Shown here: piece after piece, positions 1 through 56,269 of the stretch | How the letters are laid out: every line of letters begins with the position of its first letter | Position numbering within the stretch: the first letter of the stretch is position 1 | Source: Gemmatimonadota bacterium | Lineage (GTDB): Bacteria; Gemmatimonadota; Gemmatimonadetes; Palauibacterales; KS3-K002 | NCBI GenBank assembly: GCA_039589995.1 | Contig: JBDHGH010000005.1 | Location: forward strand, 2,813 to 66,812 | DNA length: 64,000 nucleotides | Reading direction: 5' to 3' | Made by a program: the position numbers and the translations under genes | The notes under the pieces: model-generated | Seen by the model: the letters and a program-made list of their open reading frames with translations, nothing else | The model's database searches: none | Told to the model about the DNA's origin: nothing

Positions 1-380
1 TGGTCTGCTCGGCGGTATCGTTCCCCCCTGAAGAGCAGCCGACAGCTAGGACTAGGGCGGATACGATGATTCGCAAACTCTTAGACATCTTAACTCCACG
101 TGTGGTTAACGTTGCACGGCTCGCTGCCTGCCTGGGCGCGAGCCGGGGCGCGACGGTGGTCGCGTGTGCGGTCGATCGTGGACCGGAGACTACACCCCGC
201 TGCTGGTGACCGCAACTGGCCTGTTGACCGCGCGCTTGGATTTTCGTCGATTGGCTAGCGACGCGAGGGCAGCGAACCGGAGTGCGGATCCGGTGTAGGA
301 AGGACCCTCACTCAGACTTCAGCGCAACGCGGCCATCTGGCTGGCTACTTACAGTCTCGTTCATCTGGAGAATCAAGGTC

Positions 381-2615
381 ATGAGCTTAGCACGACCGAT
401 TACGACCGTCCTTGCAGCGACGCTAGGGTTGTTGGGCGGTACCGCGCCACAGGACGAGGAGGGCTTGAGTTGGCCGCGTGAATTCACGCATGAGGGCTAC
501 CTCGTCGTGGTGTACCAGCCGCAGCTCGAGACGTTCGAGGGTGACAATCTCACGGGGCGAACCGCCGTATCGGTGGTTCCACCGGGCCAAAGTGAGCCGG
601 TGTTCGGAGCCGTGTGGTTCGATGCGATCGTCGAGACCGATCGGGAGGAACGGACGGTAGAGATCGGGGATGTCACCATCCCCAGAGTTCGCTTCCCCGA
701 CGCCAGCGAAGAACAAACGCAGGCGTTGGCGGACGTTCTATCGGAGCAGGCCACAGCCTGGGAGGCGGTCGCGTCGCTGGACCATATCCTGACAAGTCTG
801 GAGATGGTGGAACGAGAGCGTGCGGTCTCGGATGACATTAATACCGAGCCGCCGGATATCCGCGTTACCTACGTGCCGTCCATCCTGGTCACGCTGGATG
901 GCGAGCCGGTACTTCACGACATAGAGAACACAGACCTCCAGGCTGTCGTAAACACGCCCTTTACGATCATCTACTATCCGAGCACGGCGATCTACTATCT
1001 GTATGCGGGACAAGACGCTTGGTTCTACGCCACCGACATGATGGGTTCGTGGGCGGTCACGGACCGAGTCCCCGAGAAAGTGACTTCGCTTGTTCCACCC
1101 GACACGGCACAGGTAGCGGTCGATGAAGCAGACGAGACGGGGCTAGATCTAGATATCAATGACGTCACCGTGGTGGTGGTGACCGAGCCAACGGAGCTGA
1201 TCGTTACAGAGGGGCCACCCGAATACGCCTCGATCGACGGTACCGATCTTCTTTACGTGAGCAATTCGGAGAGCGACGTATTCGTAGAGATAAACTCACA
1301 GCAGTATTTCATCGTTTTGGCCGGGCGATGGTATACCAGCGGGAATTTGGACGGCCCGTGGAGCTTCATTGCGTCGGACTCGATCCCTGCCGATTTCGCC
1401 AAGATCCCTCCAGAGTCGGCGCGCGGTAGCGTGTTGAGTTACGTAGCGGGGACCGATCAGGCGAAGGACGCAGTGCTGGACAACTCGATCCCTCAAACAT
1501 CGGCGATAAGACGCGACGCGACGCTCGAAGTTACCTACGATGGCGATCCCCAGTTCGAGCCCATCGAGGGCACTGAGATGACGTACGCTGTAAACACAGC
1601 CTCGCAAGTCATAGAGGTCGACGGCCGGTATTACGCTTGCGACCAGGCGGTCTGGTACGAATCGGACGGCCCGACCGGGCCGTACACGGTGGCAACCGAA
1701 ATGCCGGACGACATTCAGGACATCCCGCCAGATAACCCGAACTACAACGTCAAGTACGTCTACGTCTACGATTACACACCGGAGGTCGCCTACGTCGGCT
1801 ACACGCCGGGTTACACGGGGAGCTATGTCTACGGTTCTACCGTCGTGTACGGAACGGGCTGGGTCTATCGTCCCTGGATCAGCCCGTTCTTCTTCTATCC
1901 GCGTCCAATGACGTGGGGCTTCCACGTCCGCTTCAACCCGTGGTGGGGCTGGAGTGTTGGGTTCGGATTCCGTTCCGGCCCCTTTCACTTCGGTTTCGCG
2001 ATGGGACCGATGATGTGGCGGCGTCCTATGGGCTGGTGGGGACCGCGCGGCTTCCACCGCGGCTTCAACCGTGGTTTCCACCGCGGCTACGGTGCCGGTT
2101 TTCACGCCGGCTACCGGGCGGGCCAGCGGTCGGCTGCGCGCCAGAACATTTATCGGAACCAGCGCAACGCTTCTCGTAACGTGGATCGGGCCACCGCCCG
2201 CAATCAGATGTCTCAGCGACAGGGCAACCGCGGGGGACAGGCCCGCGACATGTCGCGTACACAGGGTGGCCAGCGCAGCCAGGGTGCGGAGCGACTACAG
2301 CCGTCGCAGGGCCGGAACAACAATCTCTATGCCGACCGCAACGGCGATGTCTACCGTCGGAACTCGGACGGCAGCTGGCAGATGCGCGATAACCAGAACT
2401 GGGGCTCGGCGGACCGATCGGGTACGCAGAACCGCCAGCGGGACGCGAACCGACAGCAGCCGTCGCGGGACCGAGCACAGCCTTCGACTCAGAATCGCAG
2501 CCAGAATCTCAACCGCGAGTACAACTCACGGCAGCGGGGGACGCAGCGGACGCAGAGCTATAATCGGCAGCGCTCGGGTGGTGGCGGGTCCCGTGGTGGA
2601 GGCAGGAGACGTTAA
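381..2615 (+). CDS. Secreted hypothetical protein. Central region rich in aromatic and Gly residues (YVYVYDY, GFHRGFNRGFHRGYGAGFHAGY), followed by a disordered Gln/Asn/Arg/Ser-rich tail of about 240 aa.
   Basis: Long ORF. Start moved to ATG 381 with AAGG 6 nt upstream, which gives a signal-peptide-like N-terminus (MSLARPITTVLAATLGLLGG). The ORF-track start at 282 is a GTG further upstream. No recognisable catalytic motif. Confidence 0.55.
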   Translation: MSLARPITTVLAATLGLLGGTAPQDEEGLSWPREFTHEGYLVVVYQPQLETFEGDNLTGRTAVSVVPPGQSEPVFGAVWFDAIVETDREERTVEIGDVTIPRVRFPDASEEQTQALADVLSEQATAWEAVASLDHILTSLEMVERERAVSDDINTEPPDIRVTYVPSILVTLDGEPVLHDIENTDLQAVVNTPFTIIYYPSTAIYYLYAGQDAWFYATDMMGSWAVTDRVPEKVTSLVPPDTAQVAVDEADETGLDLDINDVTVVVVTEPTELIVTEGPPEYASIDGTDLLYVSNSESDVFVEINSQQYFIVLAGRWYTSGNLDGPWSFIASDSIPADFAKIPPESARGSVLSYVAGTDQAKDAVLDNSIPQTSAIRRDATLEVTYDGDPQFEPIEGTEMTYAVNTASQVIEVDGRYYACDQAVWYESDGPTGPYTVATEMPDDIQDIPPDNPNYNVKYVYVYDYTPEVAYVGYTPGYTGSYVYGSTVVYGTGWVYRPWISPFFFYPRPMTWGFHVRFNPWWGWSVGFGFRSGPFHFGFAMGPMMWRRPMGWWGPRGFHRGFNRGFHRGYGAGFHAGYRAGQRSAARQNIYRNQRNASRNVDRATARNQMSQRQGNRGGQARDMSRTQGGQRSQGAERLQPSQGRNNNLYADRNGDVYRRNSDGSWQMRDNQNWGSADRSGTQNRQRDANRQQPSRDRAQPSTQNRSQNLNREYNSRQRGTQRTQSYNRQRSGGGGSRGGGRRR

Positions 2616-2617
2616 GA

Positions 2618-2832
2618 GGGAGACGAACATCGAACATCGATCAAGGAACATCGAAAGTTGAAGATGGAGACGAACGGCGCGAACAGCTAATAAAGAACAC
2701 CGAATCCGAATATCCAAGGCACAACGTTTTCGCCGTCCGATAGATGTTCGTATTCGATGTTCGATGTTTCCCAGGTTCGTCTCCATCTTCGAACTTCACA
2801 TATCGATGTTGGATGTTCGATGTTCGTCTCCC
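2618..2832. repeat. 215-bp imperfect inverted-repeat element with GGGAGACG...CGTCTCCC termini and many GAACATCG octamers
   Basis: Arms 2618-2676 and 2766-2832 are reverse complements with few mismatches. AT-richer than the flanks. Confidence 0.7.
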
Positions 2833-3636
2833 TAATACCGTCCCCGCCGCCTCTCCTTGGAGGGTAGGATTTCATTGCATGTGGTCCACCAGCCCGTGAC
2901 AATCGTCTCGACAAACTGATCCGGCAGTCCTTCATCTCGCATTTCCTCCGCGAGTGCTTCGTGATCGTACGAGACCGGTACGAATTCGACCTCTAGAGCC
3001 TCGCCTTCCAGCGATAGCATCGTGTACCAGACGTGGGTGTTCCCATCGTTGGCCGGTCGACCGATGGCGCCCACGTTGACGACCAGCCGTTCACCTGGCA
3101 GCTCGCGGCTCCAGTGCAGGCCCGTGTGAGTGCAGAGGATGACATCCGCGTCGAAGTCGTCAAGCAGCTTTTCCAAGAAGTGTGTGGGTGAAGTGGACTC
3201 CCATAGGAACTCGTTCATGCGTCGTGGGCTGACATGGCACAGAAGTGCCCGCCGGTCACCCAGGCGGATGTGCAGATGTTCGGGCAGATCGCCAAGCCAA
3301 GCCCGCCAGGACGAGCTCGTGTTGGTGAGTGTGTAACGGTACGAGATGCGGGCGAAGTGGTTGTCGAGAGGATCGGTGTAGCCGCACTGGCAGTCGTCGA
3401 GGCCGCGGGCGATGGAGTCGTCGTAGTTTCCTCTGATCGTCCGCACATCGTTCTCAACGAGTATAGGGAATACGCGGTCCGGATGCGGGCCGAACGCGCC
3501 GATGTCGCCAAGACAGAACAGTGCTTCCGCACCTCGTCGTCGCGCATCTTCGATTACCGCCCGCAGCGCATGATGATTGGAGTAGACGCCACCAAAGGCG
3601 GCGAGGCGCCTGTACGTGATCGACTCCACGCTCACC
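2832..3636 (-). CDS. Calcineurin-like metallophosphoesterase (YfcE/MJ0936-like)
   Basis: GD...GNYD metallophosphoesterase motifs (LGDIGAFGPHPD, IRGNYDD). GTG start at 3636 overlaps the stop of the upstream radical-SAM gene (GTGA). The 317-aa track ORF from 3785 is probably over-extended. Confidence 0.65.
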
Positions 3637-4730: not shown

Positions 4731-5471
4731 ATGAAGTGGAAATACGCGGGTAAAAGCGACGTCGGAAAGGTCCGGCAAGGCAACGAGGATTCGCTCTTCG
4801 CTGATGCGGAGTGGGGCGTGTTCATCGTGGCCGACGGCATGGGCGGGCACGTCGCGGGCGAGGTCGCCAGCCAGATCGTCGCGGAGACGGTGGGGCCGGG
4901 GGTCTGCGAGGCGGTCCAGTCGGGTCTCAGAGGGGACGACCTGGAAGACCGCGCTATCGAGTTAATCCTGGAGGCCAACCAGAGGATCATCGAGCGAGCC
5001 GACAGCGAGCCCGAGAAACGCGGCATGGGCACTACGCTCACTCTGATGACTCTAGATCCCGAGAACGGCTACATCTTCAACCAGGTGGGCGACAGTCGTG
5101 GCTACCTGCTGAGAGACGGGTCCCTTATCCAGGTCACGTGTGATCATACCGTTGTGCAGCAGCAGGTGGACCGAGGCGCGCTCACACCCGAGCAGGCTCG
5201 CGACCACCCTCTGTCTCACATCCTGACGCGGGCCCTGGGTACGGAGGCGAACGTCGAGCCCGACACTTACGACGGGTCGGTCCACCCAGGAGACCTTTTT
5301 CTTCTGTGTTCCGATGGGCTCAGCGGTATGCTGACCGACGAGATTTTGAAGGAGATTCTCTCGAGACCCACGGGCGAATTGCAGGAGATCCCCGACGCGC
5401 TGATCTCCGCTGCCAACGCTGCGGGTGGCCTGGACAACATCACGGCAGTCGTCGTGCAAGTAACGGAGTAG
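4731..5471 (+). CDS. PP2C-family Ser/Thr protein phosphatase
   Basis: ADGMGGH, metal-binding Asp motifs and C-terminal GGLDNITAVVV, typical of Stp1/PrpC. GGAGG RBS. Confidence 0.85.
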   Translation: MKWKYAGKSDVGKVRQGNEDSLFADAEWGVFIVADGMGGHVAGEVASQIVAETVGPGVCEAVQSGLRGDDLEDRAIELILEANQRIIERADSEPEKRGMGTTLTLMTLDPENGYIFNQVGDSRGYLLRDGSLIQVTCDHTVVQQQVDRGALTPEQARDHPLSHILTRALGTEANVEPDTYDGSVHPGDLFLLCSDGLSGMLTDEILKEILSRPTGELQEIPDALISAANAAGGLDNITAVVVQVTE

Positions 5472-47129: not shown

Positions 47130-47136
47130 TCCAATG

Positions 47137-47270
47137 TGTGATCAGTGATCAGTAACCAGTGACTCCGTGGCCCTTCACGCTGGGTTCACGCGAGCACCGG
47201 CGATAGCCATGATCCTTCGAGTTTGAGTTCGGCCTATCAGCGATCCACTGGTTACTGATCACTGATTACA
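47137..47270. repeat. Hairpin-forming repeat module in the gcvPB leader. Partial direct copy at 45572-45631.
   Basis: TGTGATCAGTGATCAGTAACCAGTG (47137-47161) is the reverse complement of CCACTGGTTACTGATCACTGATTACA (47243-47268). The 60-nt block GATCCTTCGAG...CAGCGATCCACTGGTTACTGAT recurs at 45572-45631. Confidence 0.65.
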
Positions 47271-47308
47271 GGTTGCCCATCATGCCAACTGTCAGAGCAC
47301 TAGCGCTG

Positions 47309-50141: not shown

Positions 50142-50206
50142 TCGGCCTCTGACCGGGTTCAAACCCGGCGACGCCGCGAGGCGTTGCGCCGGTTGAGCCA
50201 GATCCA

Positions 50207-50246
50207 CCGGCCGCTTCTGCATTTGGGAGGCGGCCGGTCCTTTTTG
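50207..50246 (+). terminator. Orphan plus-strand rho-independent terminator
   Basis: CCGGCCGC-15 nt loop-GCGGCCGG then TCCTTTTT. No annotated plus-strand CDS upstream. Confidence 0.45.
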
Positions 50247-50250
50247 TGGT

Positions 50251-50382
50251 ATTGGGAGTTGGTAAGTAAACGAGTAATAGAGCAATCGAGACTGCGAGTT
50301 TTGAGTTGGGTCTGTAGCACGCACCCACTTCCAACTCGCAGTCTCGATTGCTCTATTACTCGTTTACTCACCAACTCCCAAT
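50251..50382. repeat. 132-bp palindromic element: 50-bp stems with one mismatch and a 32-nt loop
   Basis: ATTGGGAGTTGGTAAGTAAACGAGTAATAGAGCAATCGAGACTGCGAGTT ... AACTCGCAGTCTCGATTGCTCTATTACTCGTTTACTCACCAACTCCCAAT. Confidence 0.8.
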
Positions 50383-52372: not shown

Positions 52373-52498
52373 GGGAGTAGGTGAGTAAACGAGTAATAGA
52401 GCAATTGAGACTGCGAGTTTTGAGTTTGGGCCTTGCTGGGAGGCCATTCCCAACTCGCAGTCTCTGCTTCTCTGTCACTCGTTTACTCACCTACTCCC
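52373..52498. repeat. Second, diverged copy of the 50251 palindromic element
   Basis: GGGAGTAGGTGAGTAAACGAGTAATAGAGCAATTGAGACTGCGAGTTTTGAGTTTGGG... shares about 45 nt with copy 1. Its right arm is degenerate. Confidence 0.7.
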
Positions 52499-56082: not shown

Positions 56083-56133
56083 TGCGGTGCGATGCTACCT
56101 CTCCTGTAACCTCCCTGCAACCCCCTCTTCTCT

Positions 56134-56269
56134 TACTCCTACTCCTAATCGTACTCGTACTCGTACTCGTACTCGACTCCAAAGGTCTGGAAGGATTGGG
56201 ATTGCGAGTAGGAGTACGATTAGGATTAGGATTACGATTACGATTACGATTACGATTAGGAGTAGGAAG
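56134..56269. repeat. About 135-bp array of degenerate hexamers (TACTCC/TACTCG/TAATCG ; GATTAG/GATTAC) with overall dyad symmetry
   Basis: (TACTCG)x4 and (GATTAC)x4 perfect tandem runs flanked by variant hexamers. Lies in the divergent promoter between the ABC ATPase gene and nhaP. Confidence 0.75.

Follow-up and report, generated by a model that had tools for sequence, protein, structure and literature searches.

An ORF-less hairpin element of a dispersed family between two convergent Gemmatimonadota genes

The element in the convergent gap

The window (the whole 64-kb stretch of DNA analysed here) contains, toward its left end, two genes that face each other across a short gap (Table 1). 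The upstream gene encodes a protein with a basic, Arg/Gln/Gly-rich C-terminal tail; the relatives of the downstream gene product, a metallophosphoesterase, are annotated as Gemmatimonadota. The gap is filled to the base by an imperfect palindrome. The TAA codon of the upstream gene occupies positions 2613-2615, the minus-strand stop of the downstream gene (CTA/TAG) positions 2832-2834, and the last C of the element is the first base of the metallophosphoesterase stop codon. The GC content of the element is 47%, against approximately 61% for the genome. No ORF is found inside this copy. The window is devoid of rRNA, tRNA and tmRNA genes, and an Rfam scan of it returned nothing at gathering thresholds, with only chance-level matches (E = 0.5-5) around the element.

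Table 1. Coordinates of the element, its parts and the flanking genes (positions in the 64-kb window).
Feature	Position	Strand	Remarks
ORF-less hairpin element, whole	2618..2832	.	215 bp; imperfect palindrome; arm profile matches both ends
Left terminal 21-mer GGGAGACGAACATCGAACATC	2618..2638	+	pairs perfectly with 2812-2832, giving a 21-bp basal helix
Right terminal 21-mer	2812..2832	-	exact reverse complement of left end; 2832 common to metallophosphoesterase stop
Outer left 47-nt module, arm type A (…ATCAAGGAACATCGAAAGTTGAAGAT)	2619..2665	+	holds heptamer array 2624-2655; module spacing 47
Inner GGAGACGAAC	2666..2675	+	start of second (inner) module
Central segment, inner imperfect hairpin and loop	2676..2774	.	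holds heptamer array 2743-2768
Inner GTTCGTCTCC	2775..2784	-	partner of 2666-2675
Outer right 47-nt module, arm type B (…ACATCGATATGTGAAGTTCGAAGAT on minus strand)	2785..2831	-	holds heptamer array 2803-2826
Upstream convergent gene	282..2615	+	777-aa protein without Pfam match; stop 2 nt before element
Downstream convergent gene, metallophosphoesterase	2832..3629	-	265 aa, identical to P0001; stop overlaps last base of element

Both ends of the element consist of the identical 21-mer GGGAGACGAACATCGAACATC in inverted orientation, a match for which the chance expectation is 0.01, and the longest inverted repeat has arms of 96 nt that are 72% complementary. As RNA, each strand folds into one long hairpin, with a minimum free energy of -107 kcal/mol for the plus strand and -114 kcal/mol for the minus strand. 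These values correspond to a z-score of about -12, and none of 200 shuffled sequences was as stable. The findings bear out the initial description, made by a sequence-only reading of the window, of a 215-bp inverted repeat that exactly fills a convergent gap.

The same reading had taken the repeat unit for an octamer present at least eight times in the two orientations. This had to be revised. Exact GAACATCG occurs only 5 times (3 on the plus and 2 on the minus strand; 10 times if one mismatch is allowed), and the true unit is the heptamer GAACATC, as seen in the three period-7 arrays identified by TRF (Table 1). With at most one mismatch, GAACATC is found 13 times in the element, whereas shuffled versions contain it 1.5 +/- 1.2 times. 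As the motif count exceeds the shuffled expectation and other copies exist at unrelated metagenome loci (see below), the feature is a genuine one. The heptamers are overlaid by a longer repeat of 47 nt. This module opens with GGAGACGAAC, found at 2619 and 2666 on the plus strand and at 2775 and 2822 on the minus strand, so that the element reads as outer module, inner module and loop, inner module, outer module. The outer arms are two distinct variants, type A (ATCAAGGAACATCGAA...) and type B (ACATCGATATNTGA...), rather than plain mirror images of each other.

An nhmmer profile built on the arms matches the window at 2618-2675 (plus strand, E = 1e-13) and at 2832-2775 (minus strand, E = 9e-17), that is, at a single element only. 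The GGGAG/CTCCC ends, which had been noticed as common to the element and the 50251 family, are indeed present in the family at 50251 and 52373; a probe for the 50251 family found no copies in the other loci fetched. Another strong structure in the window, at about 32312, was set aside; it lies inside a cold-shock protein gene.

A binding-site array for a dimeric protein was also among the initial suggestions. The density of the heptamer, 13 near-copies of one sequence in both orientations within 215 bp, raises the question of whether the element acts at the DNA level, as an array of binding sites for a sequence-specific dimeric regulator or a nucleoid protein. Conservation of the termini beyond the neutral rate (see below) would also fit this explanation. 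However, a 7-bp period places successive sites on different faces of B-DNA, no promoters lie nearby, the elements are found where genes end and not where they start, and the heptamers are wholly different between equivalent elements, even between two elements at one site (loci L064 and L067, described below). An array of this type is thus very unlikely.

A dispersed family with a long history at this site

Metagenome contigs were scanned with the terminal 20-mer GGAGACGAACAYCGAACAYC. The scan yielded 25 loci, several of which are chance matches in AT-rich DNA. About 12 of the 25, on contigs of 58-62% GC, represent full hairpins of like design with different flanking genes; copies classed as full are L033, L035, L041/L055, L044, L049, L050 and L056, and copies classed as partial are L034, L048 and L051. 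The full-length identity to the window copy reaches 0.71-0.72 in L041, L049 and L056, the same as in the orthologous element L031 (0.71), and the arm profile finds family copies at E = 1e-10 to 1e-17. The arms of the family are made of tandem heptamers (GAAYAYC) and the 47-nt module starting with GGAGACGAAC. L056 carries the asymmetric A/B arm pair of the window as B/A, the type-A arm being the right arm of L056. Recurrence of the pair in this form indicates that the element, asymmetry included, was copied in its entirety. The distance of family copies from the stop codon before them ranges from -1 to 27 nt, and the gaps that hold them are convergent or co-directional. The window element is a member of a family dispersed over unrelated loci in Gemmatimonadota-like metagenome contigs.

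Two further collections were searched. A scan of reference genomes (a collection without the source genome) with an 18-mer gave 28 matches, none of them with two inverted matches; these correspond to chance or conserved-gene matches and to heptamer runs in three MAGs, two from Akkermansiaceae and one from Armatimonadota. The terminal 20-mer had 0 matches in viral contigs. Arm-arm pairing was compared within and between copies. The energies, -63.0 kcal/mol within a copy and -59.4 kcal/mol between copies, do not differ significantly (permutation p = 0.16), and we therefore make no claim of copy-specific compensatory evolution or covariation.

The site itself was examined in relatives, identified by the flanking protein. 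The closest of these, L031 (86% amino acid identity), has a full-length, diverged element of 216 bp. A 142-bp version with one arm largely decayed is present in L029, L030 and L040 (Gemmatimonas sp. SG8_38_2; 81%). In L057 (77%), the gap is only 34 nt long, starting with GGATGCGAACGCCCAACACCG and ending with GTTCAATCCCC; it looks like two terminus-like ends left after internal collapse. Finally, in L060 (73%), the site is taken by a different hairpin, made of CTACCAC-type heptamers. The outer arms are syntenic in L031, with the central 99 nt inverted relative to the window and L029, as is expected of recombination between the inner inverted repeats.

As a whole, the element diverges at about the synonymous rate. 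Its identity to L031 is 0.71, compared to 0.60-0.66 at synonymous sites, and its identity to L029 is approximately 0.50, compared to 0.53-0.57. The terminus adjacent to the 777-aa gene departs from this pattern: all of its 21 positions are identical in L029 and L040, where synonymous identity is 0.53-0.57. It follows that the ends, and not the interior, are constrained or homogenised. Decay, inversion of the centre and collapse to 34 nt in relatives show the element to be a long-standing resident of the locus.

These data bear on the possibility that the hairpin is a host-evolved device, a bidirectional terminator or an mRNA 3'-stabiliser for the convergent pair, in which the repeats would be incidental. 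Termination had been proposed from the sequence, and several features agree with a role of this kind: the gap is exactly filled, each strand forms a highly stable hairpin, stop codons lie immediately 5' of almost all family copies, and structure is present at this site in several lineages, including the different hairpin of L060. Closer inspection weakened the proposal. The element (47% GC) lacks a T-run, 0 terminator-like sites are found in 2300-3200 on either strand, and the other three convergent gaps of the window are unstructured spacers, with no hairpin, whereas canonical hairpins followed by a T-run occur at 50206-50247 in the window and directly beside the L049 copy. Furthermore, family copies also lie between co-directional genes and around an ORF, and the orthologous locus L057 copes with a 34-nt gap. 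A sequence family that is common to unrelated loci, and that encloses a gene in some of them, points to copying and not to local evolution. We regard a host-evolved device as improbable.

The nearest alternative to the interpretation developed below is a classical MITE, that is, a deletion derivative of an IS with a DDE transposase, moved in trans by a cut-and-paste mechanism that acts on its 21-bp terminal inverted repeats. Part of this proposal, also made from the sequence at the outset, holds: the element is short and ORF-less and has perfect 21-nt terminal inverted repeats. Its inverted-repeat family is found at many unrelated intergenic loci of metagenome contigs, with a single copy in the 64-kb window. 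The part that concerns transposition fared less well. At about 10 copies there is no consistent target-site duplication, the flanks being merely AT-rich stop codons, although old insertions could have lost such duplications. No transposase is seen between or beside the family termini (GGGAGACGAACATCGAAC) in the loci examined, and the sole cargo between family arms is a PF05635 four-helix-bundle gene (see below), of a type not known to encode a transposase. Modular construction, with tandem triplication in L053, sets the arms apart from transposase-specific terminal inverted repeats, as does arm sequence, which varies greatly between related elements while the period of 7 is kept. A MITE in the classical sense is therefore unlikely.

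Mobilisation as a REP/BIME-type element by a RAYT, an IS200/IS605-like tyrosine transposase, was considered as well. REPs, like the present element, are intergenic palindromes mostly found 3' of genes, and have no target-site duplications (PMC3733652). The element is an intergenic palindrome of a kind that lies mostly between convergent or co-directional genes. The CGTC tetranucleotide, found near each end of the element, would be a further parallel. REPs are, however, 20-40 bp long, with a stem of 8-9 bp, a loop of 4-5 nt and an unpaired GTAG or CGTC tag (PMC3733652). The element matches neither this size nor the stem and loop geometry: it spans 215 bp, its arms measure approximately 95 nt, and its CGTC forms part of the paired stem. 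In the sequences examined, no RAYT came to light. This origin is the least probable of those considered and can be given hardly any weight.

IVS-protein genes and heptamer arrays

One of the family loci, L053, has three left modules in tandem and, 430 bp further on, an inverted right arm. The interval between the arms is occupied by an ORF of 144 aa with a match to Pfam 23S_rRNA_IVP (PF05635, E = 2e-13). Together with its two orthologues, L062 and L066, this locus shows family arms enclosing an ORF of 127-144 aa. Close homologues of the protein, P0122 and P0136, match TIGR02436 "four helix bundle protein" (E = 5e-21), and P0122 also matches PDB 2RLD. In L062 and L066 the gene sits in the loop of a complete family element, bounded by the outer arm, the inner segment and TTTCCCAC-GTTCGTCTCC-ATCTTCG. 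The arms shared by the three loci include the inner GGAGACGAAC / TTTCCCAC-GTTCGTCTCC segment, and the right 90 nt of the window element align with the region 3' of the IVS-protein gene. In plus orientation, the right part of the central segment (…TTTCCCAG) matches the stretch just 3' of this gene in L062. From these alignments, ORF-less and ORF-bearing copies share their arm sequence. The direction of change may have been either one: loss of the gene could have given rise to the ORF-less copies, or hairpin loops that already existed could have received the gene. No PF05635 homologue is found in the window.

The exact arm family is joined to an IVS-protein gene at this one independent locus only (L053/L062/L066); what the remaining IVS-protein loci have in common with it is the heptamer design, in some cases the GAACAYC motif, and not the full arm sequence. 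Four such loci on Gemmatimonadota-like contigs (L064, L067, L069 and L070) have their IVS-protein genes within inverted repeats that display heptamer periodicity. An example of a GAACAYC-type arm at a locus of this kind is GAACATCGAACATTGCACACCGAACGTCGAAC, which is 90% complementary to its partner. Two of the four, L064 and L067, represent one chromosomal site, with flanking proteins 75-77% identical. Their IVS proteins are only 58% identical and their arms are unrelated, a pattern indicative of insertions that occurred independently, or of turnover, at this site.

Plasmids searched with tblastn yielded IVS-protein homologues that were mostly from Nostocales, with others from Chloroflexota and Bacteroidota; nine were taken for flank analysis. 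In all, 14 IVS-protein loci were examined, spanning Gemmatimonadota, Cyanobacteriota, Chloroflexota and Bacteroidota. A flanking inverted repeat was found in every one of them, with z-scores of 3.1-38 relative to shuffles, and at 12 loci none of 200 shuffles reached the observed score. For comparison, the flanking inverted-repeat score of 46 control genes from the window was 8.1 +/- 2.4, with one outlier. Period 7 gave the top autocorrelation in 24 of the 28 flanks. The heptamers themselves differ from one locus to the next: GTCGGAG is repeated four times in Nostoc punctiforme and AATTCAA four times in N. flagelliforme, AATCCCC and AATCGTA three times each in Planktothrix, and an AAGGATG-type unit is found in Chlorohelix. 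IVS-protein genes are associated with inverted heptamer arrays across phyla. In many bacterial genomes, long simple repeats belong most often to the heptanucleotide class, for which we know of no explanation; likewise, 23S rRNA IVSs and their S23p/four-helix-bundle ORFs have been known for more than 30 years with neither a function nor a mechanism of mobility, and we know of no transposition mechanism for IVS proteins.

On the strength of these results we think it probable, if well short of certain, that the window element belongs, as an ORF-less copy, to a Gemmatimonadota family of long modular hairpins and is, as such, an extragenic, IVS-like selfish element. Since relatives within the family carry the PF05635/TIGR02436 gene, the window copy would stand to them as a gene-less 23S IVS stands to an ORF-bearing IVS, or a MITE to its parent. 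Taken by itself, the element is of an ordinary kind, an intergenic hairpin repeat of a dispersed family. What lifts its interest above that of a generic MITE is that it is related to IVS-protein elements and that it led to the heptamer rule seen across phyla: the locus and its relatives tie together dispersed ORF-less hairpins, ORF-bearing versions with the same arms, and that rule.

Comparison with known elements and possible effects on the convergent transcripts

The closest parallel is offered by the IVSs of 23S rRNA. In the Coxiella burnetii IVS (helix-45), an S23p ORF occupies the loop, RNase III cuts the terminal stem of 28 bp, and the heptamer GACAGAT is repeated in tandem a variable number of times, two or three; 23S IVSs are regarded as selfish elements whose mobility is not understood (PMC4990558). 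In the literature searched, this anatomy is described for the Coxiella 23S IVS alone. The likeness extends to several features. In both cases long terminal inverted repeats form a stem, here with a 21-bp basal helix and 96-nt arms, and tandem heptamers are present, here as three period-7 arrays. Long IVSs combine a PF05635 ORF in the loop with adjacent tandem heptamers, the ORF being present here only in the related L053, L062 and L066; and among 23S IVSs too, ORF-less short forms (Salmonella) exist beside ORF-bearing ones (Leptospira). The differences are equally clear. IVSs are inserted in a helix of 23S rRNA (25 or 45), whereas the element lies between protein-coding genes; its arms are much longer (approximately 95 nt, in two nested modules); its heptamer is GAACATC and not the GACAGAT of Coxiella; and RNase III excision is, in its case, a prediction.

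Intergenic hairpins with arms of tandem 7-bp repeats are also found in cyanobacteria. The STRR (short tandemly repeated repetitive) hairpins, such as that of the hupS-hupL spacer, are usually composed of 7-bp units. No function is known for them, although stabilisation of transcripts has been suggested (PMC2670836). They resemble the element in location and in the composition of their arms, and the IVS-protein genes examined on cyanobacterial plasmids are flanked by arrays of this sort (for instance, AATCCCC x3 and GTCGGAG x4). STRRs are defined for heterocystous cyanobacteria, and the phylum and the heptamers differ, which makes the element an analogue and not a member; moreover, STRRs are usually simple tandem arrays, in contrast to a 215-bp modular element with conserved 21-nt termini. 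In the literature searched, STRRs were nowhere connected with IVS-protein genes. Nor did that literature hold an account of the Gemmatimonadota repeats or of a link between IVS proteins and heptamers outside rRNA; most subscription journals lay beyond the search, hence this is no proof of novelty.

Dispersed ORF-less repeats of 100-250 bp with complementary ends include the pneumococcal BOX, the enterobacterial ERIC, the Correia elements of Neisseria and other prokaryotic MITEs. Their modules can be tandemly repeated, they are co-transcribed with their neighbours, and some are cut by RNase III. The element is like them in size, in its ORF-less state and in being modular; there is no sequence relation, and the TA duplications and IHF sites of Correia elements are not seen at the element. 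We know of none of these families that is built of heptamers or tied to a PF05635 gene.

PF05635 proteins are homologues of Avd, the accessory protein of DGRs (PMC10053308). A bolder interpretation, which we offer tentatively and consider doubtful as it stands, is that PF05635 (Avd-like) genes and inverted tandem-heptamer arrays form one widespread, so far unrecognised class of selfish hairpins present in at least five phyla. If so, 23S rRNA IVSs would be a special case, having landed in rRNA, and ORF-less copies, possibly with the cyanobacterial STRR hairpins, would be MITE-like derivatives. The pentameric protein would recognise the heptamer arrays, as RNA or single-stranded DNA, and promote spread or maintenance, and the elements would prefer gene 3' ends and spacers within defence operons. 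Should the heptamer rule hold in a systematic survey, it would define a testable class of elements and would account for a frequent source both of breaks in assemblies and of long hairpins between genes, among Gemmatimonadota, cyanobacteria and other phyla.

Turning to the effects on the flanking genes, transcription from either of the convergent genes would produce an RNA hairpin of approximately 95 bp with the perfect 21-bp basal helix, and as both genes run into the element, both transcripts should contain it. The length of this helix is that needed by RNase III, as in the rRNA IVSs; endonucleolytic processing or definition of the 3' end would accordingly be the likeliest effect, and from the predicted fold the transcript of the element is probably an RNase III substrate. 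The element would then act mainly as a site of processing or 3'-end formation and as a barrier insulating the convergent mRNAs from each other. The conserved termini and the heptamers are candidate recognition sites for the machinery that spreads or maintains the element, possibly the IVS protein. For the gene pair considered here the consequence would be modest, likely a processing site or a barrier at the 3' ends of the two convergent mRNAs.

The site of the heptamer hairpin in related genomes

In the orthologous element of L031 (positions 2256-2471) some 95 nt at the centre are inverted relative to the window, the outer arms retaining their syntenic arrangement. The middle has flipped between the inner inverted repeats. 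A more distant relative (L060) has a different hairpin at the orthologous site, built from CTACCAC/GGTAGGT heptamers (positions 4790-4860). The site is repeatedly taken by heptamer hairpins of unrelated sequence. The gene adjoining the element in the window (282-2615) encodes a protein of 777 aa in which no Pfam domain is found. One region of it is rich in Tyr, Gly and Trp, and it carries a long, basic tail rich in Arg, Gln and Asn. Its synteny is conserved in relatives, where the product measures 741-771 aa; the gene is missing from one comparison locus (L059).

Incomplete copies and heptamer runs at other loci

Two incomplete copies of the family flank a thioesterase-like gene at one locus (L044), the first lacking its outer right arm (positions 820-971) and the second, a half copy, carrying one (1463-1570). 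Over approximately 50 nt the outer arms of the two are near-perfect reverse complements. The pair could be one element that has been split, or could stem from a recent duplication in a single genome. Sequences starting with GGGAGACGAACATCGAAC and continuing into GAACATC-type heptamer runs occur outside Gemmatimonadota as well (see table). Often only a single arm is present; the one in L038 immediately precedes an ATG. These occurrences may reflect either horizontal spread or convergence.

Repeats and hairpins in the window and heptamer runs at comparison loci
Feature	Location	Strand	Details
Terminator-like hairpin, canonical	50206-50247	+	13 pairs, then CCTTTTTGTG
Second palindromic repeat family, 2 copies	50251-50382; 52373-52498		2.1 kb apart
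Hexamer-array hairpin	56130-56267		CTCGTA x8.5 and AGGATT/ACGATT x12.7
GTGATCA-heptamer inverted repeat	47132-47275		arms 30 nt long with 90% complementarity; fold z = -7
GGGAGACGAACATCGAAC followed by GAACATC-type runs	L018, L022/L052 (Akkermansiaceae MAGs), L012 (Armatimonadota MAG), L038, L039, L042

Other hairpins in the window

The hexamer-array hairpin occupies a divergent, promoter-side gap, so the simple-repeat hairpins of the window are not all found at 3′ ends. A TACTCG/TACGAT hairpin of the same kind flanks the GAACAYC arms of two partial family copies (L034 and L048). The GTGATCA repeat is flanked by two co-directional minus-strand genes, and GTGATCAGT-type runs resembling it are carried by L051, also a partial-copy locus. 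Both members of the second palindromic family lie directly 3′ of a minus-strand gene; their arms (47-59 nt, 87-92% complementary) show no heptamer periodicity and end in GGGAG...CTCCC. A search of the comparison loci yielded no further copies. The terminator-like hairpin falls within a 600-nt gap separating minus-strand genes, and may mark the end of a putative, unannotated plus-strand small RNA; searches for Rfam families and for tRNA and tmRNA genes gave no match.

Settings of IVS-protein genes

At two loci on Gemmatimonadota-like contigs (L064 and L067), an IVS-protein gene occupies one and the same chromosomal site, between an ORF of 156/176 aa and a PAP2 gene. The flanking products share 75-77% aa identity and the IVS proteins just 58%; no relationship exists between the heptamer arms on either side of the two genes. 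Sequence comparison thus suggests independent insertions, or turnover, at a shared site. Genes for such four-helix-bundle proteins also lie within defence loci of cyanobacterial and Chloroflexota plasmids (L074, L076, L079, L080 and L082): one sits between cas2 and cas1, another adjoins cas1, two separate a DUF1156 protein from a Swt1-family HEPN protein, and one has a helicase-related protein on one side and an N-6 DNA methylase on the other.
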